From positions 1 to 23,803 of IMG/VR virus record IMGVR_UViG_2563366943_000008: a stretch of DNA of 23,803 nucleotides; one strand, written 5' to 3'. The notes below the pieces were generated by a model that had not been told where the DNA came from, did no database searches, and worked only from the letters and a program-made list of their open reading frames with translations. Both the position numbers and the translations under genes were made by a program. Shown piece by piece: positions 1-22,468 of this stretch. Position 1 is the first letter of the stretch. Every line of letters starts with the position of its first letter. The DNA is from a virus. Its lineage: Duplodnaviria > Heunggongvirae > Uroviricota > Caudoviricetes.

Positions 1-1254
1 ATGCTGGAACAAATGGGCATTGCCGCGAAGCAAGCCTCTTATAAATTAGCGCAACTCTCCAGCCGCGAAAAAAATCGTGTGCTGGAAAAAATCGCCGATG
101 AACTGGAAGCACAAAGCGAAATCATCCTCAACGCTAACGCCCAGGATGTTGCTGACGCGCGTGCCAATGGCCTTAGCGAAGCGATGCTTGACCGTCTGGC
201 ACTGACGCCCGCACGGCTGAAAGGCATTGCCGACGATGTGCGCCAGGTGTGCAATCTCGCCGATCCGGTGGGGCGGGTAATCGATGGCGGCGTACTGGAC
301 AGTGGCCTGCGTCTGGAGCGTCGTCGCGTACCGCTGGGGGTTATTGGCGTGATTTATGAAGCGCGCCCGAACGTGACGGTTGATGTCGCTTCGCTGTGCC
401 TGAAAACAGGTAACGCAGTGATCCTGCGCGGCGGCAAAGAAACCTGTCGCACTAACGCTGCAACGGTAGCGGTGATTCAGGACGCCCTGAAATCCTGCGA
501 TTTACCGGCAGGCGCAGTACAGGCGATTGATAATCCTGACCGCGCGCTGGTCAGTGAAATGCTGCGTATGGATAAATACATCGACATGCTGATCCCGCGC
601 GGCGGGGCTGGTTTGCATAAACTGTGCCGCGAACAGTCGACAATCCCGGTGATCACTGGTGGTATAGGCGTATGCCATATTTACGTTGATGAAAGCGCAG
701 AGATCGCTGAAGCATTAAAAGTGATCGTCAACGCGAAAACTCAGCGACCGAGCACATGTAATACGGTAGAAACCTTGCTGGTAAATAAAAACATCGCCGA
801 TAGCTTCCTGTCCGCATTAAGCAAGCAAATGGCGGAAAGCGGCGTGACGTTACACGCAGATGCTGCTGCGCTGGCGCAGTTGCAGACAGGCCCCGCGAAG
901 GTGGTGGCGGTTAAAGCCGAAGAGTATGACGATGAGTTTCTGTCATTAGATTTGAACGTCAAAATCGTCAGCGATCTTGACGATGCCATCGCCCATATTC
1001 GTGAACACGGCACGCAACACTCCGATGCGATCCTGACCCGCGATATGCGCAACGCCCAGCGTTTTGTTAACGAAGTGGATTCGTCCGCTGTTTACGTTAA
1101 CGCCTCTACGCGTTTTACCGACGGCGGCCAGTTTGGTCTGGGAGCGGAAGTGGCGGTAAGCACACAAAAACTCCACGCGCGTGGCCCGATGGGCCTGGAA
1201 GCACTGACCACTTACAAGTGGATCGGCATCGGTGATTACACCATTCGTGCGTAA
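1..1254 (+). CDS. proA: gamma-glutamyl phosphate reductase (glutamate-5-semialdehyde dehydrogenase), complete 417 aa
   Basis: Full-length ORF from ATG at 1 to TAA at 1252-1254. Translation matches enterobacterial ProA from memory along its whole length, with a few substitutions relative to the K-12 sequence as I recall it. High-GC core-genome codon usage. Confidence 0.95.
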
Positions 1255-1368
1255 ATAAAACCGGGTGATGCAAAAGTAGCCATTTGATTCACAAGGCCAT
1301 TGACGCATCGCCCGGTTAGTTTTAACCTTGTCCACCGTGATTCACGTTCGTGAACATGTCCTTTCAGG

Positions 1369-1444
1369 GCCGATATAGCTCAGTTGGTAGAGCAGCGCAT
1401 TCGTAATGCGAAGGTCGTAGGTTCGACTCCTATTATCGGCACCA
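1369..1444 (+). tRNA. thrW: tRNA-Thr (anticodon CGU), 76 nt with encoded CCA
   Basis: Sequence GCCGATATAGCTCAGTTGGTAGAGCAGCGCATTCGTAATGCGAAGGTCGTAGGTTCGACTCCTATTATCGGCACCA folds as a cloverleaf: 7-bp acceptor stem GCCGATA/TATCGGC, D-arm AGCTCAGTTGGTAGAGC, anticodon loop with CGT, T-arm GGTTCGACTCC. Position immediately downstream of proA matches the known thrW locus. Confidence 0.93.
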
Positions 1445-1461
1445 TTCAAACATCTCCCCAA

Positions 1462-1608
1462 GTCTACTAAAGTCTTTCAAAACCCCTTATAATCCGCGTA
1501 TTAAAGCCCCGTTCGTCTTTTGACGTCTACTAAAGTCCCTCAAAATCTACGGTCAGATGGGGGTACTTATGGGGGTATTTGCTGTTCGGTTTAGTGGAGG
1601 TACCCCCA
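1462..1608. promoter_or_regulatory. integrase-proximal repeat cluster (candidate arm-type / operator sites)
   Basis: Two 23-bp direct repeats GTCTACTAAAGTC(T/C)(T/C)TCAAAA at 1462-1484 and 1525-1547 (3 mismatches). TGGGGGTA(C/T) occurs at 1558-1566 and 1570-1578, with an inverted copy GGTACCCCCA at 1599-1608 that overlaps the GGAGG Shine-Dalgarno (1596-1600) of the integrase gene. Confidence 0.45.
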
Positions 1609-1609
1609 A

Positions 1610-2824
1610 GTGAAACTCAATGCCCGTCAAATAGACACAGCCAAGCCAAAAGAGAAGGCTTACAAGCTGGCCGATGGTGGCGGTTTGTATCTCTTGGTAA
1701 AACCTAATGGAGGTAAATACTGGCGACTTAAATATCGTGTAGCTGGTAAAGAGAAGCTATTGGCACTAGGTGTTTATCCTGAGGTTACTCTAGCCGATGC
1801 TCGGGCAAAACGTGAAGATGCGAAAAGAGGTATCGCTGGTGGTATCGATCCGATGGAAGCGAAACGAGAGGAAAAGATTGCCCGGGAAACGCAGTTAAAC
1901 AACACCTTCAAAGATATTGCCCTTGAGTGGCACAGCAGCAAATTAAAAAAATGGTCTGCTGGTTATGCTTCAGACATCCTCGAAGCCTTCAACAAAGATG
2001 TGTTCCCTTACATTGGCAAAAAAACCATCGCCGAAATCAAACCACTTGAACTTCTGAATGTGCTGCGTCGCATCGAGGGGCGCGGTGCTACAGAAAAAGC
2101 CAAAAAAGTGAGGCAACGGTGCGGGGAAGTTTTCCGCTATGCAATAGTCACTGGTCGCGCAGAGTATAACCCTGCACCAGACCTTACTAGCGCGATGCAA
2201 GGCCATGAATCTAATCATTACCCTTTCCTTACAGCCAAAGAATTACCTGATTTTTTCAAGGCATTGTCCAGTTACTCAGGAAGCGCATTGGTTGTTATGG
2301 CGGCTCGTCTACTGATTATCACCGGCTTGCGGACTGGCGAACTACGTGGCGCATTATGGGATGAAATTGATTTCAACAAGGCTATCTGGGAGATACCCGC
2401 TTCACGTATGAAAATGCGGCGGCCTCATATTGTGCCATTGTCTGAGCAGGCTCTTTCGCTTATTGGGAAGATTAGAGAAATAACAGGCAATTACCCTCTT
2501 ATGTTTCCCGGGCGCAATGATCCAAGGAAAACAATGAGCGAGGCCAGCATAAACCAAGTGTTTAAGCGCATTGGCTACGCTGGACGTGTAACTGGTCATG
2601 GGTTCCGGCACACTATGAGTACGATTTTGCATGAGCAGGGCTATAACACTGCGTGGATAGAAACGCAGCTCGCTCACGTTGATAAGAACTCAATTCGTGG
2701 CACATACAACCATGCGCAATATCTGGATGGAAGGCGGGAGATGCTTCAATGGTATGCCGACTATATGGATTCTCTCGAGCATGGCGGAAATGTGGTGCAT
2801 ATGGTGTTTGAAAAACACGCATGA
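1610..2824 (+). CDS. int: tyrosine integrase, P4/IntA-type (site-specific recombinase), 404 aa
   Basis: GTG start at 1610 with GGAGG 10 nt upstream. N-terminal region typical of P4-family integrases (KLADGGGLYLLVKPNGGKYWRLKYR), C-terminal catalytic domain with HGFRHT and HxxR/Y context. Position directly 3' of a tRNA gene is the classic island arrangement. Confidence 0.9.
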   Translation: MKLNARQIDTAKPKEKAYKLADGGGLYLLVKPNGGKYWRLKYRVAGKEKLLALGVYPEVTLADARAKREDAKRGIAGGIDPMEAKREEKIARETQLNNTFKDIALEWHSSKLKKWSAGYASDILEAFNKDVFPYIGKKTIAEIKPLELLNVLRRIEGRGATEKAKKVRQRCGEVFRYAIVTGRAEYNPAPDLTSAMQGHESNHYPFLTAKELPDFFKALSSYSGSALVVMAARLLIITGLRTGELRGALWDEIDFNKAIWEIPASRMKMRRPHIVPLSEQALSLIGKIREITGNYPLMFPGRNDPRKTMSEASINQVFKRIGYAGRVTGHGFRHTMSTILHEQGYNTAWIETQLAHVDKNSIRGTYNHAQYLDGRREMLQWYADYMDSLEHGGNVVHMVFEKHA

Positions 2825-2919
2825 AACAACTGGACAAGTATACAGAGGTTTACTAAAGTATAAGGGAGTAGATTGATAAAAACTCACAGAGGATTGCTAT
2901 TTAACAGTTAGCCATGGAG

Positions 2920-3220
2920 AAGGGCAATCGCTCTTTTAACAACGAAGATGGAATCTTCTACGCAGCTGAAAAGCTGGATGCTCTTTAACAGCCTTTGGTG
3001 CTTTTCTGATGCAGGAAAGAATAGGGATACATGCACCTTTACAATGCATGTAATGATTCATCCATGAGGCTGCGGAGCGCTGACAAAGCGCAATTGCTCT
3101 TTAACATTGATGTGGGCGGGATGGTTCGTCCCGCAGTGACCGATAGATTTCTATCGGGAAACATACAATGATTCAAATATGAATCTACGGCGCTGACAAA
3201 GCGCAATTGCTCTCTTGCCT
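2920..3220. repeat. intergenic repeat/palindrome cluster
   Basis: Perfect 24-bp direct repeat GCGCTGACAAAGCGCAATTGCTCT at 3077-3100 and 3190-3213. Related CTCTTTAACA motifs at about 2929-2948 and 2980-2993. Perfect palindrome CGATAGATTTCTATCG at 3141-3156. Small hairpin GCGGGA-N7-TCCCGC at about 3115-3135. Confidence 0.6.
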
Positions 3221-3542
3221 GCCCACCATGCCCTGAAAAAGGGCGTTCTTTAAAACTACTGGATGTCACGCCTAATAGCGTGATCCTGCCGAAATGCAGG
3301 GTAGCTCTACCCTTGTGGAGCAAACAAACCAAAACAATCTGACTATCTTTTATAAAAGACCGCAATATGTTTTTCATATTGTGGTCTTTGGCGTATTCGA
3401 CATTTGACGCAAATAAAACTCTCGCCATTCGTTGCAGGAGGGGGTTATTGCGTCATTAGTACAGGATATTAATAAATGGCTAATTACAATTCATTAATTC
3501 GTCTCTCTGAAGTTCAAAGGCGAACTGGGTAATGACTCCAAC

Positions 3543-4046
3543 TTATTGATAGTGTTTTATGTTCAGATAATGCCCGATGACTTTGTCATGCAGCTCCACC
3601 GATTTTGAGAACGACAGCGACTTCCGTCCCAGCCGTGCCAGGTGCTGCCTCAGATTCAGGTTATGCCGCTCAATTCGCTGCGTATATCGCTTGCTGATTA
3701 CGTGCAGCTTTCCCTTCAGGCGGGATTCATACAGCGGCCAGCCATCCGTCATCCATATCACCACGTCAAAGGGTGACAGCAGGCTCATAAGACGCCCCAG
3801 CGTCGCCATAGTGCGTTCACCGAATACGTGCGCAACAACCGTCTTCCGGAGCCTGTCATACGCGTAAAACAGCCAGCGCTGGCGCGATTTAGCCCCGACA
3901 TAGCCCCACTGTTCGTCCATTTCCGCGCAGACGATGACGTCACTGCCCGGCTGTATGCGCGAGGTTACCGACTGCGGCCTGAGTTTTTTAAGTGACGTAA
4001 AATCGTGTTGAGGCCAACGCCCATAATGCGGGCTGTTGCCCGGCAT
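3543..4046 (-). CDS. insB: IS1 InsB reading frame (expressed as the InsAB' transposase by -1 frameshift)
   Basis: 167-aa ORF overlapping the 3' end of insA in the -1 frame; sequence matches IS1 InsB. Confidence 0.85.
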
Positions 4047-4240
4047 CCAACGCCATTCATGGCCATATCAATGATTTTCTGGTGCGTACCGGGTTGAGAA
4101 GCGGTGTAAGTGAACTGCAGTTGCCATGTTTTACGGCAGTGAGAGCAGAGATAGCGCTGATGTCCGGCGGTGCTTTTGCCGTTACGCACCACCCCGTCAG
4201 TAGCTGAACAGGAGGGACAGCTGATAGAAACAGAAGCCAC
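3965..4240 (-). CDS. insA: IS1 InsA (transposition repressor / N-terminal part of transposase)
   Basis: 91-aa [43 protein letters not shown], a zinc-finger plus HTH protein matching IS1 InsA. Confidence 0.9.
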
Positions 4241-4304
4241 TGGAGCACCTCAAAAACACCATCATACACTAAATCAGTAAGTTGGCAGCATCACCGGGTG
4301 ATTA

Positions 4305-6410
4305 ATGGCTAAAGCATGGAAAGATGTTATCGCCTCTCCACAGTATCAGGCGTTAGCACCAGAACAAAAAGCGCAGGCTCAGGAGCAATACTTCAATGAA
4401 GTCGTGGCCCCGCAAGCCGGAGAAAGTGTAGCGCAGGCTAAGCAGGCTTTTTATGCTGCCTATCCACTACCATCAACGAATGAAATAGACCGATCCCAAT
4501 CAGCAACTCAAAATATTCAACATACATCATCTGATAATTCTCTTGCGTCAGGGTATGCAAAGTTAGCTACTCAGCAAAGAGAGGGGCTTGAGCGTTCAGC
4601 AGAACAGGGAGCCAGTCTTGGGGCTGCGATGCGCGATGCTATAACAGGCGAAAGCCGAATGACTCCAGAGATGGAGAGACTGCAAAATGTCGACCTTGCC
4701 CCAGAGTTAACCTCACTCAGCATGGGTGCTCTAAAAGCTCGATGGTCTCAACTTTTCGGCTCTGACGCATCTCAGGAAAAGATTCTTCAGAGCATGGGAG
4801 CGAAATTAAGGCAGGATGAGAAGGGTAACACTATCGTTTCCCTGCCATCCGGTGATTATGCTCTGAACAAGCCGGGTTTATCGCCGCAAGACGTGGCATC
4901 GTTTCTGGCTAATGCGCTGGCGTTTACACCAGCGGGCAGGGCTGGAACGGTGCTTGGTGCCATAGGAAAATCAGCAGCTACAGATTTAGCACTACAGGGA
5001 GCCACCAGCCTTGCTGGTGGAGAAGATATTGATCCGTTACAAACGGTAATTTCTGCTGGCATTGGTGGTATTGGTAAGGGGCTGGAAAATACAGCGAGTG
5101 CGGTTTCGAGGGCTGTTCGTGGTGATATGTCGCCTGAAGCAAAGGCTGCTGTCAACTTTGCATCGGAAAGAAATCTGCCGTTAATGACCAGTGACATGCT
5201 GAAAGATAAAACCTTTATGCAGAGTCAGGCTCAGACATTAGGCGAAAGAGTTCCTTTTTTTGGAACCGGTAAGAATCGGCTGAATCAACAACAAGCACGA
5301 GAAAATTTAGTCAGAACATTTAGCGATGGTCTGGGTGGCATTTCTGATAAACAGCTTTATGAATCTGCGACTAAAGGGCAACAAAAATTCATTGAGGCAG
5401 CAGGAAAGCGATATAACCGCATAATTGACGCTATGGGGGATACCCCTGTCGATCTCTCAAACACGGTAAAAGCTATCGACAATCAGATTGCCGTGTTAAG
5501 CCGCCCGGGCAAATCTCAGGATAGAGCCGCGGTAAAAGTCTTGCAGCAATTTAAAGACGATATCACCAGCGGACCAAATGACCTGCGTCTGGCGAGGGAA
5601 AACAGAACCGATCTTCGAAAGCGATTTATGGCGTCATCTGACACTGTTGATAAAGATACGCTCCAGAAAGCCAGCGATATTATCTACAAGGCATATACGG
5701 CGGATATGAAAAAAGCCGTAGCCAAAAATCTTGGAGCAGACGAAGCCATTAATATGGCAAGGGTTGATCGGTCATGGTCTAAATTCAATGACATGATGGG
5801 AAGAACGCGCGTTCAAAAGGCAATAGCCAGCGGTAAGGCCACGCCTGAGGATGTAACAAAACTCGTTTTTAGCCAAAGCCCATCAGAACGTTCTCAGCTT
5901 TACAGGCTTCTGGATGACAATGGTAGGCAAAACGCACGAGCAGCCATAGTTCAGAATGCTGTAGATAAGGCGACTGATCCGTCTGGAAATATCAGTGTTG
6001 AGAAGTTTATTAATGCGTTACACCGGAACAGGAAGCAATCAGCAACTTTCTTTAAAGGCGTACATGGAAAGGAACTGGACGGCGTTATTAAATACCTCAA
6101 CGATACAAGACACGCGGCAAAAGCGAACGTTCAAAACTTAAATGGTCAGCAGCTTTATGGATTGTTAGTTGGTGGTGGCATCATAAACGCAGCAGTATTA
6201 GCGGGGATGCTAAAAACGGCTGCGTTTGTTGTTCCTGCTGCTGGTGCCGTAGGCGGAGCAGCGAAGGCATACGAAAGCCCTGTTATACGAAATGCCTTGT
6301 TACGTCTGGCAAATACGCCAAAAGGTAGCACAGCATATGACAGAGCGATCAGTACGGTCACACAATCGCTCACCAGAGTCGCACAGGCATCACAAAAAGA
6401 AGCTCAATAA
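4305..6410 (+). CDS. large Ala/Gln/Lys-rich helical protein with C-terminal Gly/Ala-rich hydrophobic segment (function unknown; tape-measure-like or pore-forming-toxin-like)
   Basis: 701-aa ORF with consistent coding character. First ATG lies 9 bp after the IS1 end, preceded by an in-frame TGA and no Shine-Dalgarno, so the native N-terminus and promoter may be missing. About 37-residue hydrophobic stretch LYGLLVGGGIINAAVLAGMLKTAAFVVPAAGAVGGAA near the C-terminus. Confidence 0.5.
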   Translation: MAKAWKDVIASPQYQALAPEQKAQAQEQYFNEVVAPQAGESVAQAKQAFYAAYPLPSTNEIDRSQSATQNIQHTSSDNSLASGYAKLATQQREGLERSAEQGASLGAAMRDAITGESRMTPEMERLQNVDLAPELTSLSMGALKARWSQLFGSDASQEKILQSMGAKLRQDEKGNTIVSLPSGDYALNKPGLSPQDVASFLANALAFTPAGRAGTVLGAIGKSAATDLALQGATSLAGGEDIDPLQTVISAGIGGIGKGLENTASAVSRAVRGDMSPEAKAAVNFASERNLPLMTSDMLKDKTFMQSQAQTLGERVPFFGTGKNRLNQQQARENLVRTFSDGLGGISDKQLYESATKGQQKFIEAAGKRYNRIIDAMGDTPVDLSNTVKAIDNQIAVLSRPGKSQDRAAVKVLQQFKDDITSGPNDLRLARENRTDLRKRFMASSDTVDKDTLQKASDIIYKAYTADMKKAVAKNLGADEAINMARVDRSWSKFNDMMGRTRVQKAIASGKATPEDVTKLVFSQSPSERSQLYRLLDDNGRQNARAAIVQNAVDKATDPSGNISVEKFINALHRNRKQSATFFKGVHGKELDGVIKYLNDTRHAAKANVQNLNGQQLYGLLVGGGIINAAVLAGMLKTAAFVVPAAGAVGGAAKAYESPVIRNALLRLANTPKGSTAYDRAISTVTQSLTRVAQASQKEAQ

Positions 6411-6429
6411 CTGGTTAGCCATGGATGGC

Positions 6430-7044
6430 TTAGATATCTCTGCTGTCTCCATTAGGAAATAAAAGATAATATGGATTTGCCTTTCTTGCTCTCCTTGCTT
6501 CACCCGGATACCTGTTAGTCAGTAGCTTGCATAATGAGCAGAGAACAACACTCAAGAAAATTCCGAATGAGAAGATCAATATCTCACCAAAAATCAATGG
6601 CGATATTAAATTTTCAGGATTTAATGATAAGTCAATGTTAAAAACATATTGAGCAATACCAGTAAGTATCAATAATATAATCCCTATGGAATACATTGCT
6701 GTTTCCCAAACATCAGACAGTCTATTTTTGAATTGTTCGCTGGAGTAGTAGTTTGTTATAAAGTCAGAAAAATCACTCTCATATGCATCATCTTTAGGTG
6801 ATGTTAGAAATCCTCTGTCTCTCCATACCTTCTCCCAATTAGTCGATTCTTTTTTTAAGGAAAAATAAATATGTATTCCCAAAAGGATAGCCAAAATTGG
6901 TGTTAGCTCTAAAAAATAGAATGTTATGGAATAAATAATACTGCCATGTTCAAACTCATCTGGGACTATCATGTATGCACAAAAATAAATTGAAAAGTAC
7001 ACCATGCAGATAGTTAGCAATTCTTTAGTATCTTTTCTGCTCAC
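6430..7044 (-). CDS. integral membrane protein, 4 predicted TM helices (candidate immunity / abortive-infection membrane protein)
   Basis: 204-aa ORF with GTG start at 7044 and AAGGGGG Shine-Dalgarno upstream. Four long hydrophobic helices with a charged central loop. Very AT-rich compared with the adjacent 701-aa gene. Convergent with that gene, with a 19-bp gap containing a palindrome. Confidence 0.6.
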   Translation of the reverse strand: MSRKDTKELLTICMVYFSIYFCAYMIVPDEFEHGSIIYSITFYFLELTPILAILLGIHIYFSLKKESTNWEKVWRDRGFLTSPKDDAYESDFSDFITNYYSSEQFKNRLSDVWETAMYSIGIILLILTGIAQYVFNIDLSLNPENLISPLIFGEILIFSFGIFLSVVLCSLCKLLTNRYPGEARRARKANPYYLLFPNGDSRDI

Positions 7045-7498
7045 ACCAACCCCCTTTAGCGTTGTTTAGAATGGCAATCATCATATATCCAAGACATGGC
7101 ATTTGGTACATAGCTTGGGTCGGGATTTCAAGTCCGCTCCCAGTTGATGGGGCCGTTACAGTACGCGCATATCCGCTTTATGTGAAACAGGAAGATTTTT
7201 CTGATATCACTGCCACAGCAAAACACCAATTTCGTGACCAGTACGCGCGCGAGGGGTATCAGTTGCAAAATTTTTTGCAACTGCGTCCGACCAGTACGCA
7301 CACGATGGCGGGGGATACCATAAAACTGTTCTCTACATGAGACAGAGTGGTGGTGATGTGTTGATTATCGGCGTATATGCGCACAGGACGCGCTATGACG
7401 ATGTTTTATGCGGGTACACCAATCACATGTATCTGGTGTGATAAATCGCGTTACATGACCTCTCATGTTGTGCTGGTGGTTATCACGACTTTCTGAAT

Positions 7499-7542
7499 CT
7501 GGCCTTTGCCTGATATTTTGCGACAAGTACGCGCGCGTAGCA
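7499..7542. repeat. dispersed repeat with alternating CG core (copy A)
   Basis: CTGGCCTTTGCCTGATATTTTGCGACAAGTACGCGCGCGTAGCA. Partial relatives at 7231-7253 (TTTCGTGACCAGTACGCGCGCGAG) and 7283-7303 (CCGACCAGTACGCACACGA). Confidence 0.6.
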
Positions 7543-7565
7543 TCGACAGCATACACATTGGATAT

Positions 7566-7787
7566 TCATTTTGTGACCAATGCGATAAGTAGCGGGATAA
7601 GAATTGATAAAATCAACAGGCCGATGATCCACTTTTGATTTTCACTGGCCTTATCTCTATTTTCATCAATCTTATCAATAATTCGACGCTCCAATCCGTG
7701 CATATCACCGCGAATGGCAATCATCTCATTGCGAACATCAGGGAAGTGGTTGGCTTGATGTTCAATGTGTGGCGTTCTGCCTTTCAT
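7566..7787 (-). CDS. small protein with N-terminal coiled-coil and single C-terminal TM helix (XhlA/holin-like architecture)
   Basis: 73-aa ORF; C-terminal WIIGLLILSILIPLLIALV is a clear TM segment. Architecture resembles small prophage membrane proteins. Not verified by homology. Confidence 0.4.
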   Translation of the reverse strand: MKGRTPHIEHQANHFPDVRNEMIAIRGDMHGLERRIIDKIDENRDKASENQKWIIGLLILSILIPLLIALVTK

Positions 7788-7866
7788 ATCTGATCCTCAC
7801 CTATCGTCACTACCTGCTGGTGTATAAAGGTATTGGCCCAAGCAACTTTCCAATGGGCACTCATGT

Positions 7867-8322
7867 TTATACGCTGACCTTACAATCAATCACTGCTTTT
7901 AGCTTTTCAGCATTGCTTCCCTGACGCTTCCACGCGCTGTAAATATCTTTATCCCACGCTTTACCAGCTTTTGTTTGATAGCCTGCTTCATTGATCCGTT
8001 CAGCTATCACACGCCCATTATCAAATCCCTGTTGGATGGTATCGGCAATGATCTTTATAACTGCCGTTTCGTTATATGGTTTTGGTGGGATGTTCGGCTT
8101 TCCGGCAATAAGCGACGCAGCGGCTTTTTCCATGCGCTCCACCAGCCCAAGCATTCGTGAATCAATAGACTTTTCCGGCTGCCCCAGCTTCATGCGAATC
8201 GCATCAACAAGCCAGGAGGTTTTATCTCCTCCAGAAGCGAGAACAGACCGATTAAACTCATCCTGCAATTCAGATGGGATGCGGAACGCGACCAGATTAG
8301 ATTTGCTCATTGCAAAGACCAT
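7867..8322 (-). CDS. putative ribbon-helix-helix DNA-binding regulator with C-terminal extension
   Basis: 151-aa ORF. N-terminus NLVAFRIPSELQDEFNRSVLASGGDKTSWLVDAIRMKL fits a beta-strand / helix / helix RHH pattern. A palindromic operator-like sequence lies immediately upstream. An alternative start at 8310 (MSKSN) is possible. Confidence 0.5.
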   Translation of the reverse strand: MVFAMSKSNLVAFRIPSELQDEFNRSVLASGGDKTSWLVDAIRMKLGQPEKSIDSRMLGLVERMEKAAASLIAGKPNIPPKPYNETAVIKIIADTIQQGFDNGRVIAERINEAGYQTKAGKAWDKDIYSAWKRQGSNAEKLKAVIDCKVSV

Positions 8323-8339
8323 ATCAGTGAGTAATATCC

Positions 8340-8545
8340 ATACAGTATACCACTGTATAACACTGTTATACGCTCAAATATCAGCCAGAAAATAACGGAC
8401 CAATCACAAATCTATCGCTGTGTTGTTGGTTCAGAGCTGGGCTGTGTTGGTTCAAAATGAGTTGATGTTGGTTCAATATTTCAGAAAAAACACAATAAAA
8501 ACAACAATCTTTACAAATTGAACCAACTGAACCAACTGAACCAAC
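8340..8545. promoter_or_regulatory. divergent control region with phased iterons
   Basis: Palindrome GTATAAC-ACT-GTTATAC at 8355-8371. Three direct copies of TGTTGGTTCA at 8424, 8445 and 8467 (spacing 21-22 bp). AT-rich spacer. Three tandem inverted copies TGAACCAAC at 8519, 8528 and 8537. TATAAT at 8563-8568 just before the 8582 start. Confidence 0.55.
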
Positions 8546-8581
8546 ACCTTTTTGCTTATCTATATAATCTGAGAGGCAGAA

Positions 8582-8863
8582 ATGATAAGGGACAGGAAAG
8601 CTGAAGAGCTGGAGTCAAAAGGGCTATACCGGAGAGCTGCCGCACGATGGATGGAAGTCATGCTGTTATGCACCGAGGACGATGATCGGGAATGGATAAA
8701 GCGCCGCCGTGAAACGTGTCTGGAGAACGTGAAGCGCCCGCCCGTGAAGGTTGAGGAATTTGGCGACCTGCATAAAGCTGTTACCGAAACGCAACACCGC
8801 ATGGGGATAGCGCAACCGAACGGTAACGCCTTCCGGTTAAATGGCGGCAAGAGGCAAAGGTAG
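8582..8863 (+). CDS. small transcription-activator-like protein (PerC-family-like, tentative)
   Basis: 93-aa ORF MIRDRKAEELESKGLYRRAAARWMEVM. The N-terminal motif resembles PerC/Pch-type prophage regulators as recalled from memory. Directly downstream of the iteron region. Confidence 0.45.
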   Translation: MIRDRKAEELESKGLYRRAAARWMEVMLLCTEDDDREWIKRRRETCLENVKRPPVKVEEFGDLHKAVTETQHRMGIAQPNGNAFRLNGGKRQR

Positions 8864-8888
8864 ACCACCAGAGGGAAATCATCCTCTG

Positions 8889-8934
8889 GCTGGCGGTTTC
8901 TGGTATTTCGGGACAAGTACGCGCGCGCGTAGCA
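8889..8934. repeat. dispersed repeat with alternating CG core (copy B)
   Basis: CTGGCGGTTTCTGGTATTTCGGGACAAGTACGCGCGCGCGTAGCA. Same orientation as copy A, core GACAAGTACGCGCGCG(CG)TAGCA identical apart from one extra CG unit. Confidence 0.6.
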
Positions 8935-9160
8935 CCCAATCGGTGAGGAAATAGCGGCGACCTGAATGGTCAAAATCACAACGCAGCTATCCCCGTAAGC
9001 AGCGCTTAACGGAATAGCAGTAACCTGAATCCAGTGGGGAGGGGGTAGTCAAATCTCTACAGCCCTGACTATCCGGGACTGCCCGCCCCATCGTTTTTTT
9101 ATACCCGCGAAAAATGAAATTTAATCCGGGCGTGTTTCATTCTTCCAGAGGGTATGACGT

Positions 9161-9346
9161 ATGACACCACGCGAAATAGCCTTATTGACCATCGCCAAAC
9201 TTGAGCACGGAGGCCACCAGCTTACACAGGCAGATCAACGGGAGATAGAACGATCAGTTAATGCCGATATAGCCCGGCGCGACAGGTTCCGCGAAATGAT
9301 GCGAGCACCTGCCTACCAGTGGAAGAAGCCAGCGCCGCGCAGGTAG
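9161..9346 (+). CDS. hypothetical small protein (61 aa)
   Basis: ORF with a GAGGG Shine-Dalgarno-like sequence upstream; no recognisable motif. Confidence 0.3.
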   Translation: MTPREIALLTIAKLEHGGHQLTQADQREIERSVNADIARRDRFREMMRAPAYQWKKPAPRR

Positions 9347-10361: not shown

Positions 10362-10480
10362 GGCTGGCTGATTCCTTATTGTGGGATAGCACTATCATAC
10401 AATAAGTGGGTTAAAGGGAGAGCGTTACCGCCTGATATGCTGTATGAATAACAACCAAATTTCAGGGGCGGAAAAAGATA

Positions 10481-10501
10481 TGGGGGTACTTTTGGGGGTA
10501 T
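10481..10501. repeat. second copy of the TGGGGGTAC-N3-TGGGGGTAT motif pair
   Basis: TGGGGGTACTTTTGGGGGTAT at 10481-10501 versus TGGGGGTACTTATGGGGGTAT at 1558-1578: same orientation, one mismatch. Confidence 0.7.
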
Positions 10502-10562
10502 CTATAAAAAATGAACAATAAAAAAGGCAACAAAAACAAAGCTTATCGCCTATGTGTATTGT

Positions 10563-10582
10563 TCCTATTATCGCACAATCAA
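10563..10582. other. degenerate direct repeat of the tRNA-Thr 3' end (candidate attR core of module 1)
   Basis: TCCTATTATCG-CAC-AATCAA aligns with tRNA 3' end TCCTATTATCGGCACCATTCAA (1428-1449): 11/11 identical, then gapped similarity. Lies about 60 bp beyond the second TGGGGGTA pair. Confidence 0.45.
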
Positions 10583-11182
10583 GAAAATCAATAACTTAGC
10601 TTAACTTCTCTAAGAAATTGTATCTTCTGTTATCACTTACAAACGCCTATACGTTGTTATGGGCTTTGGTAGTGTAACACGTATGGGCGAGTAGTTCCCA
10701 GGCTCAACCTCGTAACAAGTTCCTTTGAAGCTGGAAGACGTGCCACCGTCTCTAAACCTTCTACCAAAACTCTTAGCAAGATGTTCCACACCTGGCGCGG
10801 TGTCCAATGATGCTACACGTCGTGAGACGTTGCAGAGGATAAACAGGCTAAATGATGGGAAGAGTTTTAAGTGCAATAGTGGATCAAAGCCCACCTCTTC
10901 AAAACCTAACTTGATCGGGAAAGAATCAAGCTCTAGCACGGTTTCGTCCACCGGAGTACAACGGGTGCCTGATAAGAGAAGAACTGCTAAGACTTCATAG
11001 CTTTTGTGAAAAAGCCCTTTTAGTGGATACGCCTACGGCGCTTATTTTTTGGGGTAGCCCATCAAAGGCGCTTTATGGCTCCTATTGTCTTGAAAATGTA
11101 TCTTTACTTGTATTGTGTTTTATGCGTAGTCTCCCTGTGTAGTATGTAACTTGTTAATTTTCATATGAATACAGAGGCACAC

Positions 11183-11341
11183 GATGAAAAACATTGCAGC
11201 TATCAAACGTAATAACCGCAAGATTCACGCTCGTAAGTTCCTGTCTACGCCAGAAGGAAAAGCCTGGCTAGAGCGTAAACAGAGAGAGAACGAAGAAAGA
11301 AAACTCCTTAATGAGTTGAAATGGCTTAGAGAGGATTTCTG
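11183..11341 (+). CDS. hypothetical small basic protein (52 aa)
   Basis: ATG at 11183 with GAGG 6-9 nt upstream; translation MKNIAAIKRNNRKIHARKFLSTPEGKAWLERKQRENEERKLLNELKWLREDF. Below the ORF-track size cutoff, so found by eye. Coding status uncertain. Confidence 0.25.
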
Positions 11342-12153
11342 AAAATCTCCAGAACGCAACAGGACGCATTCTAACGCTATTTTCATTGCTTGGTATAGGG
11401 ATGTATAGGTGATGTGTGTTTAATGCGTCTGTGCGCTTGTTTTGTGCCTTATTTTGCATTTTCATAATGCAGAAGAGAACACGGAAAACCTTAAAATTAA
11501 TTATTGGGGTATTTAAGGGTATTTTCAGGTGATTTAAGGGTATTAAACTTGATTTAATTGATTAAAATATAAACAGATAGTTGTGTATCTTATTGATTTA
11601 TAAGGTTATTTTTAAATAAAGGTAAATAAAAAATAAATAGCCATAAATAGCTATAAATACATCTAAATACCTATATCCCTTCCCTTATGGCTAGATTGCG
11701 AGAGGTGCTTAACGCGATTTTCAGCGCCCCCCGATCTGGAAAATCCAGAATCCCCAAATATCAGCAAGGAATTTTCTTGCGTAATCAACATCGTTTTTAC
11801 CTATTAAATCATTACACAGAAAGCCTTTCTGTAATGTCTCTCACTAAACTTTCACTAAACACGAGAATGATCGGTTTTATGTCGGATCAGATGCTAGAAA
11901 CAGCACCACGTCTCACAAGGACTGTAAGCGATGAAACCAGTGTTTATGCGGGTGCAGGTCAAAATATAGGCCAAAATCAATTTAACATAATAAACGTAAT
12001 ATGCACTAAGGAACACATAGAACGCCTTGAGTTGATGTATCAGGGGAAAAGTGATGGATTTTTTACGTAGGAGCACGAGAGGGCTTCTGTTGACTTTTGT
12101 ATGCTATGAAACATAATTAAAGGTTTTTTTGTTTTTATTGTGTGATGTAGTGG

Positions 12154-13127
12154 ATTACACAGGGGAATAGATTAAATGGTGTTCTGTTTATACAGGTTTA
12201 TTTGTTAGATCAACAATTTGGCATTTCTAAACAGATGTTTGAACGTTGCCAAATGTCTTGACAACACAAGAAAAGGGCTTGCTATGCCACGCATTACACG
12301 AAATAAGGCTGTAAAAACAAAATAAATTTTAAAATTTGCACAAACGAGAAAACTCGTTAAGAAACAAGCAGAACAATTTTTAGCCAACAATTTCTGATGG
12401 TGCTCTGTAGGCCGCACTACACAAGGATTTGCGAAAGTGATGTAAAAGTGAAGAAAGTAAGAATTGCACTTTTAAGCTACTTTTCATTGAATTTTTAGTA
12501 TGGAATTACACAGGAATAAGTTAGGGATATTCTATGATTTACACAGGGAATATAGGGGATTATGGCACACACATAGAAAGGCATTACACAGAGTGAGTGC
12601 TATGTGATGATTGGTAGTAACGGTAGGTCATAGTGAGCTAGGGGGTAGGTCACTGTGAACTACAATAAGACTATTAATAAAACTATATTAGATTATTAAT
12701 TAGATCATAATAATAATATTCTTTATATCTATATATATGATCTTTTGCCTTCCGGCGTTAGCTTCACTCTCTGGCAAGCAGCCTTACTCCGCTACCTTTC
12801 GGGCTTCGTGGCTGGCCCGTTCCGCTCACACCGAAAGCAAAGCGTTACTTTCTTCGTGTAACTTCGTTGGCGGTAACGCCCACGAAGAAATCTATTGCGC
12901 TGTGCGCAGTAAGAGTAATCACCTAACCAATCATACTGATTGCTTATGTGTTAACTCTCTCTAACTCTTAATTACCCTCCTACATTTAATAACTCTGTTA
13001 TTCTCTGTAGTTGTGTAATTACTCGAAGAGAGAGCGGCTAAAGCTCAATTACACTCTGCTTTCCTCGTGTAATTTCACTAAGCCTCAATACAATTTCACT
13101 TCCTACATTCTGTAGTCGTGTAATTGT
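12154..13127. repeat. iteron field flanking an AT-rich tract and GC-rich core (origin-like region)
   Basis: Direct copies of (A/T)TTACACAGG(G/A)AATA at 12154, 12505, 12538 and 12583, plus variants at 12293 and 12417. Inverted copies CGTGTAA(T/C) at 12855, 13012, 13066 and 13117. 17-bp repeat TCTGTAGT(T/C)GTGTAATT at 13004 and 13110. GGTAGGTCA repeats at about 12625 and 12649. Extremely AT-rich tract at about 12660-12745. Confidence 0.5.
12745..12915. ncRNA. candidate structured RNA or single-strand initiation element (strand undetermined)
   Basis: GC-rich patch inside AT-rich DNA. Hairpin CTTCGTTGGCG-GTAA-CGCCCACGAAG (12862-12887; 10 of 11 positions pair, GNRA-type tetraloop). Hairpin CGGGC-N10-GCCCG (12800-12819). 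Long-range complementarity CTTACTCCGC (12783-12792) with GCGCAGTAAG (12904-12913). The overlapping 75-aa ORF has a non-protein-like sequence. Confidence 0.25.
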
Positions 13128-13761
13128 TTTCGGTGGAAAAGCCAGAGGCGACACCGAAAGAGAATTCTGATCTTATTAATCTTATCTATCTTAGTTAATC
13201 TTCTTACTTATCTTACTTACTTTATCTACTTTATTATTAATAATAGCTTTATAAGCTCTCTGTGTAGCTCTCTGACGCAAGAAACAGCATTCAGGAAGGG
13301 AATCACCTTAGAAAAGGTGTTCTTTGCGTCATAATGTGTTTTATGAAGGATTCAGAGGTGTTTCATAACAGGAATGTATAGAGAATACTTTAGGTAATTA
13401 AAAATAAGGGGTCTAAATGCTTCTCTAACAGCATTAAGCAGGGTAGGGAATGGAAACGCATTGCCTACATATAATAAACTCACTACAGGGCTTTACAGGG
13501 CGTTTTATAAAGCGACTCTCTGTTTTATATCTACAATCACCTTTTCATATACCTAACAAATACAAAATAAGCCCCTTAAATAAGCCTCTGGCGAGCTAAA
13601 CAGACATTACATAAGAGAATGTATTGCTTTTATCAAAACTTCGTTAGAACGCGTTTTAGAGCGTTTTAGCGGATAATGAAGAATAGCACTACACAGAAGA
13701 GCACGAATTGCTAAGACAAATTATAACATGCTGAAAAAGATCGATTTTTTCGAAAAGGGTA

Positions 13762-13790
13762 TTGACAAATGTTTCTTTATATGTAATAAT
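13762..13790 (+). promoter_or_regulatory. sigma70-like promoter upstream of the rightward small-gene array
   Basis: TTGACA at 13762-13767, 16-17 bp spacer, TAATAA(T) at 13784-13790. The -35 is embedded in GGGTATTGACA, sharing the GGGTATT motif seen elsewhere in the element. Confidence 0.4.
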
Positions 13791-13903
13791 AGGTATTAGA
13801 GGGACAGAAAAACATTCTTCTCTAAATAATCAAAATCAATGCACTTTGAAGCCGTCAGGCTTGCAAGGTGTTTTATTTCTTTTAACTGAATAAGGAGTTT
13901 TTT

Positions 13904-14282: not shown

Positions 14283-14335
14283 TTTTTATCACCATAGTAG
14301 CGCCATAGAGCGTGATTACATCAAGGAGATTTTTA

Positions 14336-15028
14336 ATGATTAACCAACTAACTTTTACAAAACACTATGACACGTTTGATAATATATCAAAGATTTATTC
14401 TGATAAATTCCCTCAAGGAAAAGATTTAGATCTATTACATATTGTGCTTTATTTTCGATTCCTTAGTTATCAGGAAAACAACCTTAATTGTTATGAAAGT
14501 CACGAAACATTAGCTAAGATTTTTAAGTCTTCACCATCAACAATTAAACGTAAGATAAACGATCTTAAAGAGATGGGATTATTAGAAACATCCCCACATC
14601 CTGATCCGTATATTTCATCTTTGATTTACAATGCTCTCCCTCTCACAGATGCACATATTACTCCCCCAGGAGAATCATCACTCTCTGATCTTTCTGAGGC
14701 AGAAGAAGCACAGGAACAACCTAAAGGCCATAAACAGCCTTCTTTTGATGTTCTTGATGATGATTGGGATACGCCTTTACCCTGGGAGACGGAAGAAACA
14801 CCTGTTTCATCAAGTGAAAAGGTAGCTAATGATAATGAGGAGGATGTGTTAGAGAATTTTGCCTCTCTTATCATCCAGGAGAAACACAAAAGAACAGGAG
14901 GGGCATCATTTATAGAATTTGCAAATTCACTAGCTTGTAGATACGGGCTAAAACGACCAAATGGTATTGAGGCATATTTTTCTAAGCATTACCCAAATGT
15001 ATACGAAGACTTTGATATTCCCTTTTAA
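14336..15028 (+). CDS. putative winged-helix DNA-binding protein with acidic C-terminal tail (replication-initiator / replisome-organiser-like)
   Basis: ATG at 14336 with AAGGAG 9 nt upstream (ORF track starts at 14312). N-terminal segment ETLAKIFKSSPSTIKRKINDLKEMGLLE is a typical HTH. C-terminal third is strongly acidic (DDDWDTPLPWETEETP...EEDVLENF). Confidence 0.45.
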   Translation: MINQLTFTKHYDTFDNISKIYSDKFPQGKDLDLLHIVLYFRFLSYQENNLNCYESHETLAKIFKSSPSTIKRKINDLKEMGLLETSPHPDPYISSLIYNALPLTDAHITPPGESSLSDLSEAEEAQEQPKGHKQPSFDVLDDDWDTPLPWETEETPVSSSEKVANDNEEDVLENFASLIIQEKHKRTGGASFIEFANSLACRYGLKRPNGIEAYFSKHYPNVYEDFDIPF

Positions 15029-15044
15029 AAAGTAAGGAGGACTA

Positions 15045-15323
15045 TTGATACAGTATTTAATAAAAAGCAAAGTAGACAGAATTCAGTGTAACGACACAGG
15101 AAAACGCATCTACGAAACGCTTGCTTACCTCTATAAAGGAAAGCCAACACCGCTAAAATATAGCGATGTGTTACATCGAGCAGGTTGCTCTGAGTCAGGT
15201 TTAAAATTCTGGCTGAAACAGCTATCAAATTTCGGTGTTATTGAAATGAAAGAGCTGTCTTTCTCTACATTTAATCTCAAAAGACTAGATAAAGAAATAG
15301 AATTCATCTATTCCACTCTCTAA
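15045..15323 (+). CDS. small HTH-type DNA-binding protein (92 aa)
   Basis: TTG start with very strong TAAGGAGG Shine-Dalgarno 6 nt upstream. Contains a probable HTH (YSDVLHRAGCSESGLKFWLKQL). Confidence 0.45.
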   Translation: MIQYLIKSKVDRIQCNDTGKRIYETLAYLYKGKPTPLKYSDVLHRAGCSESGLKFWLKQLSNFGVIEMKELSFSTFNLKRLDKEIEFIYSTL

Positions 15324-15455
15324 AATCTCTCTATGTAATTAAAATATAAAAGGAAAACATTATTATGATAGTAGCTATGTATTGGTTATTGTTCTTTCTC
15401 ACGTTAGAAGCATATTTCGGGGTGTTTTCCTTTAAAAGAAAAGGAAAAGTAAATT

Positions 15456-15866
15456 ATGGCAAAAAGAAAAAACAACGTTGTTAAGAAAATCGGTGATTCA
15501 GCTTCTCTTCTAAGTAAACCTAAATCTATTCTAAAACGTAAAGACTTTAAAGAGCTAGTTACGCTCACCAAGCATAATAGCGCCCCTGGCGAATGGAAAA
15601 CAGAGATCATAGAACATTCTCCCTCTGTGCCTTGTGGAGATGAATATATCGCCTTACAAGAAATCTTATCTTCAACACCTGGCGTGTTCTGGAAACCTAA
15701 AAAAAGAAAAGAGTATATCGTTGATAGCTCTGATTTACGCAAATACCAGATTTTAGGATTTGAAGATTATAATCACTACGTTGGTTATCTCGCCACAAAT
15801 GGCCTAAATAATTTAGTTCCTGAATTCCAGATTTTAGATAATGCAGATCACTATGGAGACTTTTAA
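15456..15866 (+). CDS. hypothetical basic protein (136 aa)
   Basis: ATG with AAGGAAAAG upstream. Lys/Arg-rich N-terminus. Stop codon is 1 nt before the start of the next gene. Confidence 0.5.
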   Translation: MAKRKNNVVKKIGDSASLLSKPKSILKRKDFKELVTLTKHNSAPGEWKTEIIEHSPSVPCGDEYIALQEILSSTPGVFWKPKKRKEYIVDSSDLRKYQILGFEDYNHYVGYLATNGLNNLVPEFQILDNADHYGDF

Positions 15867-15867
15867 T

Positions 15868-16206
15868 ATGAACAAAAACACGTATGACACAATTTACTCA
15901 CTAATTAATTATTATGAGGATGATTACCTCCTGCCTTTAAACCGCGCTGAACTTGAAGCATACAAAGAAAACACGCCAGCGGCACTAAATGAGGCGTTTA
16001 AACACTGGGATTTAGCTGTGAATGCCTTTGAGCACCTCTCTAAGCGTGTAGAGATGCTCTGTAAGCGCGAAAACGCATACCTGACAGCCGATCAGGTATG
16101 GGAATTATCAAACTGGATAGAAGATATTGAATCTGATGTTCGCTATGTGGGAGATGGACTTGTTGAACTAGCGCAACGCTTAGGCGCTACTATCACAGAA
16201 GAATAA
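15868..16206 (+). CDS. hypothetical acidic protein (112 aa from ATG 15868; in-frame alternative starts at 15841 and 15853)
   Basis: GGAG 9 nt upstream of ATG 15868; translationally coupled to the preceding gene. Confidence 0.45.
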   Translation: MNKNTYDTIYSLINYYEDDYLLPLNRAELEAYKENTPAALNEAFKHWDLAVNAFEHLSKRVEMLCKRENAYLTADQVWELSNWIEDIESDVRYVGDGLVELAQRLGATITEE

Positions 16207-16235
16207 AAAAAGCAACAAAAAAGTTGTAAAATATC

Positions 16236-16264
16236 TTGACATTCCATCTATTGTATGTTAATAT
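16236..16264 (+). promoter_or_regulatory. near-consensus sigma70 promoter
   Basis: TTGACA (16236-16241), 17-bp spacer, TAATAT (16259-16264). Confidence 0.5.
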
Positions 16265-16270
16265 AATTAT

Positions 16271-16491
16271 ATAGGGGTGATTATTTTTCCTTTATTGGTT
16301 CGATATTAAAAATTCTTCCTGTCATTAAAGGGGAGTAAAATCTCCGCTCCCCGCTTCTTCTCCTCCTTAAGTAAATACTGTGCCATTATACCTCTTTGTT
16401 ATGCATACATCTTGGAGTATGCATAACATAGGGTAATTACATAGGTATGAGTTAATAAAAGGCGGCTTTAAATGCTGCCTTTTATTTTGCC
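16271..16491 (+). ncRNA. candidate small RNA or structured 5' leader (about 220 nt)
   Basis: Lies between the promoter at 16236-16264 and a hairpin plus T-tract at 16457-16488 (AAAAGGCGGC-TTTAAAT-GCTGCCTTTT-ATTTTG). No ORF longer than about 11 codons on this strand. Contains hairpin GGGGAG-N11-CTCCCC (16330-16352), pyrimidine tract CTTCTTCTCCTCCTTA (16355-16369), and inverted repeat TTATGCATA / TATGCATAA (16399-16426). Confidence 0.3.
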
Positions 16492-16550
16492 CGTTATACA
16501 ACTTAAAAGTTGTATTTCTTACTTTAAACAAGGTAACAAGGTTTATATAA

Positions 16551-16763
16551 ATGTTGCTCTTAAATGATAAAGAGCAAATCATCAAGTATAAAGATGAAAT
16601 GCTGAAAATTAATCCACAAATTACCGAAATGGTAGCTAAATACGCTGGGTGTTCTGTCGAGGAAGTAGAAAGATGTGTTGAAAAATATTTTTCTCCTTCT
16701 TCTCCGTCTACACCTTCCCTTAATGAATTAATCAAATTAAAAGCTAAGGAGATTACTAAATGA
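16551..16763 (+). CDS. hypothetical small protein (70 aa)
   Basis: ATG at 16551; stop overlaps the start of the next gene (ATGA). Weak Shine-Dalgarno. Confidence 0.4.
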   Translation: MLLLNDKEQIIKYKDEMLKINPQITEMVAKYAGCSVEEVERCVEKYFSPSSPSTPSLNELIKLKAKEITK

Positions 16764-17122
16764 TTATTGATTTAGACACTCTGTTTCCAGTTCGAAAGAC
16801 TTTCACGGATATTGTAAGTTATTGTACTGATCCGTTTGCCTCTGTAGAAAGCAAGGTTTTTGCTTCTCTTCCTGCTGATGTTGAGTGCGGCGACTTGATC
16901 ACCAGCACTGGCGCTAAATATGAATCAGGAGATGATATTTATGTTGTTATGAGTGAATTTGTAACGGCTGGAGAAAACAAGCCTGTAGATGTGCTACGTA
17001 GCAATGCTGGGCTTGTATGCATCAAAGCTGATGCGCTGAATGCTGTAAGTGAAGCAGCAAAAACAGCATTAATTAAAAAAGGCTTTCAGCTTGAAGGGTT
17101 CCATTCTGTTTTCACTTCTTAA
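16760..17122 (+). CDS. hypothetical protein, 120 aa (position and size compatible with a head-decoration or scaffold-like protein)
   Basis: AAGGAG Shine-Dalgarno 9 nt upstream. Immediately precedes the capsid-like gene, as gpD precedes gpE in lambda. No direct sequence support. Confidence 0.45.
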   Translation: MIIDLDTLFPVRKTFTDIVSYCTDPFASVESKVFASLPADVECGDLITSTGAKYESGDDIYVVMSEFVTAGENKPVDVLRSNAGLVCIKADALNAVSEAAKTALIKKGFQLEGFHSVFTS

Positions 17123-17140
17123 TAAAAGGAATAATAATAA

Positions 17141-18169: not shown

Positions 18170-18187
18170 TATTTTAACGTGTAATAG

Positions 18188-18224
18188 AGGCGTGGCGTGA
18201 ATAACACGCTTCGCCTTTTTTTAT
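18188..18224 (+). terminator. rho-independent terminator
   Basis: AGGCGTGGCGTG-AATAA-CACGCTTCGCCT stem-loop (10 of 12 stem positions pair) followed by TTTTTTTATTTATTTTT. Confidence 0.75.
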
Positions 18225-18255
18225 TTATTTTTAAATTTTGAGAGGTGATTAAAAT

Positions 18256-18459
18256 ATGGAAGTGATTTTGAAATCAAAAAATGGTGTACACGTACATTTA
18301 GATGCTAATGATTCTAGAGGATTGTTAAATCTGAAATATCTCTGTTCTCTTTTAGATGTTCCCTATGAAGGAGTAAAAGCCCGTATGTTCAGATTAAACG
18401 AGAGTATTGATCAGGCTCTACACCATTTCTTAAGCAAAGAAGGTGGTAAAAATGATTAA
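18256..18459 (+). CDS. hypothetical small protein (67 aa)
   Basis: ATG with GAGAGGTGA Shine-Dalgarno-like sequence; lies between the terminator and the next gene. Confidence 0.4.
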   Translation: MEVILKSKNGVHVHLDANDSRGLLNLKYLCSLLDVPYEGVKARMFRLNESIDQALHHFLSKEGGKND

Positions 18460-22461: not shown

Positions 22462-22468
22462 ATTGCGT

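Follow-up and report, generated by a model that had tools for sequence, protein, structure and literature searches.

This study concerns a short array of repeats in the Caudoviricetes record IMGVR_UViG_2563366943_000008 of IMG/VR, of which we analyzed positions 1 to 23,803 (hereafter the window, 23.8 kb). The window is 100% identical to the chromosome of Escherichia coli isolate AF3 at proA-tRNA-Thr (thrW), and a decayed satellite of the phage-inducible chromosomal island (PICI)/P4-like kind sits there downstream of thrW. Its genes run from an integrase (1610-2824) through a small reverse-strand gene, IS1, a P22 gp16-family gene, a SieA-like gene, and an open reading frame (ORF) of 73 amino acids (aa) to a leftward gene for a ribbon-helix-helix (RHH)-like protein (7867-8310); beyond it lie the repeats, the rightward gene perC (8582-8863), a 61-aa ORF, a PRiA4_ORF3 gene, and a reverse-strand ORF. 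An earlier sequence-only reading had described the 271-bp intergenic region between the RHH-like gene and perC (8311-8581) as a divergent control region with iterons—a cooperative RHH operator, or else a small replication or partition-type site. As argued below, the block at 8424-8546 is very probably one complete origin unit of the satellite, a set of docking sites for the element's own primase-helicase, Pri-Rep.

The block is a real, non-random feature. Its 9-mer core, GTTGGTTCA, occurs six times without mismatch—starting at 8425, 8446, and 8467 on the plus strand and at 8519, 8528, and 8537 on the minus strand—and nowhere else in the window, where chance would give a mean of 0.19 copies; six copies were reached in none of 100 shuffles. 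The direct copies that the sequence-only reading placed 21-22 bp apart are spaced exactly 21 bp, and the AT-rich spacer and three tandem inverted copies it saw beyond them are as described (Table 1). Full-text literature searches with the iteron sequence returned only irrelevant matches, and neither the GTTGGTTCA iteron nor thrW is present in the supplements of PMC6092414.

This anatomy closely resembles that of known satellite origins. In Staphylococcus aureus pathogenicity island (SaPI) origins, 6-12 iterons lie close downstream of rep around an AT-rich center, at least two on each side and pointing in opposite directions, and the C-terminal winged helix of Rep recognizes them (PMC9371898). 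The window has six GTTGGTTCA copies at 8425-8545, three forward before the spacer and three reverse after it; it has no pri-rep gene, so the block does not lie directly 3' of one.

A matching iteron unit beside pri-rep in intact relatives

Intact relatives of the element carry the exact 9-mer in two clusters, one of them next to pri-rep. In E. coli O111:H8 (locus L001), one cluster (8061-8171) starts 26 bp past the Pri-Rep stop codon and the other (16226-16346) corresponds to the block of the window; in E. coli 042 (L083), the same two clusters lie at 13484-13594 and 20985-21105, 7.5 kb apart. We refer to the pri-rep-adjacent cluster as unit A and to the cluster like the window's 8424-8546 as unit B. 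Unit A alone abuts the gene, unit B lying 7.5-8.2 kb from pri-rep in the intact E. coli relatives. Homology between the window and E. coli 042, as judged by blastn, starts exactly at the first iteron, position 8424. The 21-bp spacing of the inner arm of unit B is kept in L001, L083, L056, and L061.

Units A and B are inverted paralogs. The spacing within unit A mirrors that of unit B in both L001 and E. coli 042, and when the reverse complement of unit B is aligned with unit A, neither the abutting triple nor any aligned iteron position varies, and the AT-rich spacer is similar in most units; in blastn, the two share 78% identity over 121 nt in inverted orientation. The spacer of unit A in the relatives equals the window's in length and resembles it in sequence (AATTTGTAAAGATTGTTGTTTT...). 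These elements are common: a 661-bp probe spanning the end of pri-rep and unit A matched 502 of 5426 complete E. coli genomes, at a median of two places per genome.

Comparison with the intact relative L004 accounts for the missing half of this arrangement. By blastn, window positions 1-2800 correspond to L004 1282-4081 and positions 4296-5541 to L004 16064-17309 (96% identity in the integrase region, 97% in the gp16 region), and roughly 12 kb present in L004—alpA, ash, pri-rep, unit A, and P22-like genes 14, 7, and 20—is absent, its place taken by the replacement segment listed in Table 1. An IS1-associated deletion of about 12 kb removed pri-rep and unit A from the window. Unit B is thereby orphaned, workable only with a Pri-Rep of the same specificity supplied in trans, and is probably a relic.

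The pairing of iterons with pri-rep extends well beyond E. coli. A scan with the Pri-Rep protein, taking one genome per species, gave 77 loci, mostly from Enterobacterales, of which about 60 were compared for iterons. An iteron cluster stands just 3' of the stop codon of nearly every Pri-Rep homolog. Iterons come in eight forms (GTTGGTTCA, TGTTGTCTC, ACGGGTTA, GTCGGTTC, GTCGGGTA, GTGGGTTA, TGGGATAA, and AACCGACC), with seven changes of iteron sequence across the loci compared, and the second unit, where present, always matches the first. One architecture is common to all types. It opens with three abutting copies, which an AT-rich spacer some 43 bp long separates from three inverted copies spaced 11 and 21 bp; a short linker with a CTGGCTG motif leads to three more copies, 21-22 bp apart, and after a second spacer come an inverted abutting triple, cTTTTGCTTATATATA, and the next gene. 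The abutting triple at the outer end is kept for every iteron type, and so is the cTTTTGCTTATATATA motif that follows it, irrespective of the gene downstream. In the window, this right flank (8547-8581) is a candidate promoter whose -35 position would fall within the last iteron.

The units differ in how they are arranged. By counts made automatically and then adjusted by eye, about 24 loci are compact, with both units within roughly 300 bp and abutting pri-rep in an origin of about 250 bp, and in about 10 split loci they stand 2-9 kb apart, in genera that include Escherichia, Leclercia, Cedecea, Rosenbergiella, Chimaeribacter, Pantoea, Lonsdalea, and Serratia. Locus L039 has, at 19092-19135, a fragment like the right end of an origin with GAACCGAC iterons and a TTATATATA flank, and its own pri-rep-proximal iterons are GAACCAAC; this mismatch suggests an orphan of another specificity class, and with it modular exchange of origin units.

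Iteron type also covaries with the C terminus of Pri-Rep. The L001 protein has 918 aa, with primase zinc ribbon, Toprim, and DUF927 domains; only its residues 7-361 (the primase) align to P4 alpha, at 33% identity, and its DUF927 part matches PDB entry 8tch, "Pathogenicity island protein" (E 5e-12). Over their last 60 residues, the Pri-Reps group by iteron type. QRKSPR(I/V) is found in all 39 Pri-Reps of the GTTGGTTCA type, although the protein bodies range from 60 to 100% identity to L001, and QGRVRE occupies the same position in all five of the TGTTGTCTC type (body identity 73-81%); the remaining classes carry other motifs, that of the CCGAC-type locus L023 (QRKTPRI) being one residue off from the GTTGGTTCA-type motif. 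When the C-terminal 217 aa are modeled with AlphaFold (mean predicted local distance difference test score, pLDDT, 85), the fold matches the C-terminal region of the Cch helicase of the staphylococcal cassette chromosome SCCmec (5dgk; E 6.7e-5, template modeling score 0.56), and the last 100 or so residues match the winged-helix oriT-binding protein TcpK (probability 0.99). Going by its position in the model, the covarying six-residue motif maps to the predicted beta2-wing. In the relatives, the C-terminal winged helix of Pri-Rep is thus the predicted reader of the iterons.

Taken together, the same iteron unit 3' of pri-rep in relatives and its covariation with the Pri-Rep C terminus across genera lead us to regard the small replication site, one of the options in the sequence-only reading, as the right one. 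We propose that the iterons would serve as recognition sites for the C-terminal winged helix of the satellite's fused primase-helicase (zinc ribbon, Toprim, and a DUF927 helicase of the SaPI-Rep type). If it behaves as SaPI Rep and P4 alpha do, Pri-Rep would assemble on both iteron sets of a unit; the AT-rich spacer—in the window, 8476-8518, the putative DNA-unwinding region of unit B—would melt, and the Pri-Rep helicase, to judge by homology, would load itself. The second unit might act as an auxiliary or second origin or a looping partner, as a copy-control site, or as the controller of the -10-like element past the outer triple.

Several points weigh against this interpretation. We infer, rather than observe, that the iterons are bound and that they act in replication, and the initiator gene is absent from the window, so the site has no demonstrable current function there. 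Unit B is evidently not obligatory, as about 25 of the 60 loci have a single unit within the sequence available, and it is decaying in some genera, with three or four of six copies still exact in L014, L021, and L028. Covariation seen among relatives lacks phylogenetic independence, and might in principle extend to other linked genes too. Finally, a consensus scan found no promoter or terminator in 8200-9200, and what we say of promoters is accordingly drawn from conservation.

Operator, regulatory, and partition readings of the block

The alternative that survives best is that unit B binds Rep for a regulatory purpose and is not itself a site of initiation, a possibility we take seriously even though we consider it unlikely. 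Unit B would then titrate or handcuff Pri-Rep for copy control, as P1 incA and the R6K iterons do, or its abutting triple would be an operator or activator site of a -10-like promoter for perC or another downstream gene, or both. Such a role would suit the dispensability of unit B in many loci, the constant position of the outer triple next to cTTTTGCTTATATATA and then a Shine-Dalgarno sequence and a start codon, whatever the gene downstream, and the placing of the -35 position inside the last iteron. On the other hand, the anatomy of unit B is that of a full origin, with an AT-rich spacer of its own that is homologous to the one in unit A, and the satellite phage P4, as is well established and as its GenBank feature names reflect, requires two such clusters for replication. 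Regulation by unit B is in any case compatible with the origin reading and does not exclude it.

The sequence-only reading had favored a cooperative operator, in which the adjacent RHH-type repressor would bind the iterons and control the divergent promoters of its own gene and perC. RHH proteins commonly bind short tandem or inverted repeats, the 21-bp phasing suits cooperative binding on one face of the helix, and in seven split loci, with L063 as a further partial case, unit B has the RHH gene as its immediate neighbor. That the gene is divergently placed is correct; its RHH type stands on weaker evidence. Pfam gives no match for the product; in hhalign, residues 7-49 align with the RHH domain of P22 Mnt at E 0.0036 but with a probability of only 9%. 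The AlphaFold model, an unassigned N-terminal segment followed by two helices, is compatible with an RHH fold, a homolog is listed as "Arc-like DNA binding domain protein" in one database source, and the gene occupies the mnt position by synteny with P22 16-sieA-orf59a-mnt. Foldseek comparison of the model with the PDB yielded nothing significant, a profile search against PDB sequences gave no match, and neither did tblastn against 50,697 phage records. Overall, the RHH assignment is only moderately supported.

The RHH-like gene, moreover, has repeats of its own. The separate palindrome noted at the gene's start is real (GTATAACA c TGTTATAC, 8355-8371) and is better read as part of three tandem 10-bp repeats at 8342-8371. 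Every RHH homolog has short tandem repeats at its start codon, and these covary with the beta-strand predicted to contact DNA—repeats of the ACAGTATACC / ACTGTATAAC / ACTGTTATAC type with the predicted beta-strand SNLVAFR (window and L001, Serratia L062), and GTAAGACA repeats ((C/T)NGTAAGACA, in two or three copies) with SLSVTFR in nine loci—whereas the iterons are identical for both classes and covary with the Pri-Rep C terminus instead. A search for the same iterons beside homologous regulators, which the sequence-only reading had put forward as a check, went against it: in three of the nine SLSVTFR loci (L023, L025, and L041), RHH homologs of 63-67% identity have no iterons upstream, the origins there being compact and kilobases away. 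Conversely, the E. coli 042 locus lacks an RHH homolog yet keeps a perfect unit B, all six iterons exact, upstream of perC, and in compact origins the same iterons are found where no RHH gene lies between or next to them. Since gene and iterons occur independently, the iterons are a module of their own, distinct from the RHH gene with its repeats. On this co-occurrence and covariation evidence, we reject the RHH operator, which we now hold to be very improbable; 8342-8371 is the probable operator of the RHH-like protein, as its position and covariation suggest, and the intergenic region most likely holds two independent protein-DNA systems.

Still less credible is an autoregulatory or activator site for PerC. 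The PerC-like assignment of the downstream gene holds (Table 1), and perC directly follows the block in the window, L001, L005, and E. coli 042. The same triple and flank precede unrelated genes elsewhere (ssb-like genes and others), however, identical iterons stand before PerC proteins that are only 52% identical, and PerC proteins 92-93% identical occur at loci with different iterons (for example, L010 and L012), and we reject this reading on those grounds. A partition centromere of the ParR/ParG (RHH) kind, with iterons flanking a promoter, has a superficial likeness to R1 parC, where iterated repeats surround a promoter beside an RHH gene, and can be dismissed as scarcely conceivable: no gene for a nucleoside triphosphatase of the ParA, ParM, or TubZ type is found among the neighboring genes, the element is integrative, and the same repeats lie 3' of pri-rep. 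An RNA element was likewise rejected, as Rfam at its gathering threshold detects tRNA-Thr alone in the window and nothing at the iterons.

Comparison with known satellites and a split origin

By gene content (int, alpA, pri-rep, ssb, and perC), the element belongs with the PICI-like satellites, and its origin would operate in the manner of both P4 ori/crr and PICI origins. In origins of Gram-negative PICIs, two iteron sets flank an AT-rich region 3' of pri-rep, and pri-rep-ori from EcCICFT073 supports plasmid replication (PMC6092414, Fillol-Salom et al. 2018). The region 3' of the EcCICFT073 primase gene, the site of the ori tested in that study, has a similar plan, with the iteron CTGTCTACC, then ssb and perC. 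Shared features are 9-bp iterons in two opposed sets around an AT-rich region with abutting copies at the outer ends, the place of the origin 3' of a primase-type initiator and before ssb and perC, and the element type (int, alpA, pri-rep, perC). The two differ in iteron sequence (CTGTCTACC as against GTTGGTTCA) and in initiator, which is a 584-aa "DNA primase family protein" in EcCICFT073 and a 918-aa Toprim and DUF927 protein here; unit B, a second, inverted copy 7.5-8.2 kb from pri-rep in relatives and orphaned in the window, is a further difference. With the SaPIs, the element shares iterons around an AT-rich center, a winged-helix reader (here predicted), and homologous helicase domains (the 8tch and Cch 5dgk matches). 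SaPI iterons are 5-6 bp long, whereas those here are 9-10 bp, and the present system has a fused primase of the P4-alpha/DnaG type, a Gram-negative host, and a distant second origin unit.

P4 offers a parallel for two separated clusters of one iteron. Its alpha protein has a C-terminal winged-helix DNA-binding domain (PMC2777425). In GenBank record X51522, crr directly follows the 3' end of alpha, and ori is found at a distance of 4.7 kb, flanked by the leftward ORF88, a putative DNA-binding protein, and by sid, which runs rightward; crr and ori both carry TGTTCACC type-1 repeats in both orientations; the crr units, 120 bp each, consist of two copies at 9-bp spacing, a T-rich spacer, and inverted copies. 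Unit A would thus compare with crr, being 3' of the primase-helicase, and unit B with ori, being in a divergent control region beside a small DNA-binding-protein gene. Two separated clusters of the same iteron are present in L001, L083, L056, L061, and others, the window keeping only the distal one. There are differences nevertheless—the iteron is TGTTCACC in P4 and GTTGGTTCA here, the alpha helicase is of the superfamily 3 (SF3)/D5 type as opposed to the DUF927/SaPI-Rep type, so that homology to alpha does not run throughout, the crr units are direct repeats and those here inverted, and the element lacks the sid, delta, and psu genes.

What lies between the units varies by genus. In the E. 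coli elements, the cargo is syntenic with P22 14-7-20-16-sieA-orf-mnt (window 4305-8310; L001 8798-16111; L083 14221-20466), its products being DUF2824, gp7, an ejection protein, gp16, and a SieA-like protein; we found no literature on satellites encoding P22-type ejection proteins. In other genera, the interval (L056 16198-18912; L021 14632-18042; L061 13614-18012) holds large proteins with a tape-measure domain (TMP_3; 904 and 1136 aa), or else an SLT-domain protein and a gene of the P4 Beta-protein family, with ssb and a ProQ/FinO gene also present. With ejection, tape-measure, or SLT-type genes between the units, the split origin often brackets a gene of the DNA-delivery type.

A more speculative reading, which we regard as rather unlikely, builds on this. 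The origin would consist of two inverted complete units that can be separated by 2-9 kb around DNA-delivery cargo (P22-type ejection, tape-measure-like, or SLT-domain), and the distal unit would act in the manner of P4 ori/crr, with Pri-Rep looping between the two, and would also gate the conserved promoter whose -35 position lies in the last iteron, so that initiator occupancy would couple replication to the expression of perC or another downstream gene; inverted units could also let the cargo invert or be swapped as a cassette. The class of satellite iteron origin is known; the split arrangement may not have been described before for PICIs.

These results reassign what had seemed a regulator's operator to the replication machinery of a phage satellite, and indicate that some members of a common satellite family have a split, two-unit origin like P4 ori/crr. 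They also put forward a testable specificity code, in which a six-residue wing motif of Pri-Rep would pair with a 9-bp iteron across eight natural iteron classes, and the role of the second unit is accessible to experiment in E. coli 042. For the window itself, with its probable relic, the practical gain is mainly a better annotation.

Neighboring features and a second element

The features of the intergenic region and its surroundings are listed in Table 1.

Table 1. Coordinates of features at and around the iteron block, in window positions
Feature	Position	Strand	Basis or detail
Replacement segment: hypothetical gene (- strand) and IS1 (3543-4240)	2801-4295		blastn against L004
Cargo lying between the units in intact relatives	4305-7787		gp16-family ejection gene (4305-6410, +), SieA-like membrane protein (6430-7044, -), 73-aa ORF (7566-7787, -)
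RHH-like (Mnt-position) regulator, 147 aa, conserved C-terminal helical domain	7867-8310	-	Weak profile match, model, synteny
Three tandem imperfect 10-bp repeats, ACAGTATACC / ACTGTATAAC / ACTGTTATAC	8342-8371		Include the palindrome at 8355-8371
Left flank of unit B	8372-8423		CAGCCAG (8382-8388), reverse complement of the CTGGCTG found after unit A in relatives
Three phased iterons, TGTTGGTTCA, inner arm of unit B	8424-8475	+	Starts 8424, 8445, 8466; 21 bp start to start
AT-rich spacer, 43 bp	8476-8518		18.6% GC against 43.5% window-wide
Three abutting iterons, outer arm of unit B	8519-8546	-	9-bp period; TGAACCAAC three times as read on +
Conserved right flank ACCTTTTTGCTTATCTATATAAT (-10-like), then GAGAGG (Shine-Dalgarno-like) and perC start codon	8547-8581	+	Conservation
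PerC-family gene, first gene downstream of unit B	8582-8863	+	Pfam PF06069, E 3.7e-30

Among the cargo proteins, the gp16-family protein is 30% identical to P22 gp16 and the SieA-like protein 29% identical to P22 SieA. The region also recalls P22 immI (mnt/Omnt), with the 16-sieA-orf59a-mnt synteny and an RHH-like gene at the mnt position that runs leftward with short repeats at its start. It differs from immI in that the 147-aa RHH-like protein lacks a significant match to Mnt in sequence and ends in an additional conserved domain, in that arc and ant genes are absent, and in that the divergent partner is an origin unit and perC. The perC gene is also found downstream of the origin in EcCICFT073 and in many related loci.

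A 16-nt motif, GAC(A/C)AGTACGCGCGCG, occurs four times on the plus strand in non-coding sequence of the window (7236-7251, 7289-7304, 7522-7537, and 8912-8927), where 0.01 copies are expected, and has no Rfam match; L001 has two copies and Serratia L062 one, placed between the RHH repeats and unit B. The Leclercia adecarboxylata element (L056) carries a chloramphenicol acetyltransferase gene at 21771-22448 (Pfam CAT, E 6e-95), some 450 bp downstream of unit B. Farther along the window, about 3.5 kb between the two elements (10362-13900) is free of annotated genes and of ORFs longer than 130 aa. The second element, also degraded, spans 14312-23803 and comprises a helix-turn-helix gene, a major capsid gene (17141-18169), a baseplate-annotated gene, an IS2-disrupted gene, and a reverse-strand integrase (22469-23803). 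It may be the remnant of a capsid-encoding PICI-like element; EcCICFT073 similarly has capsid and decoration genes downstream of perC.

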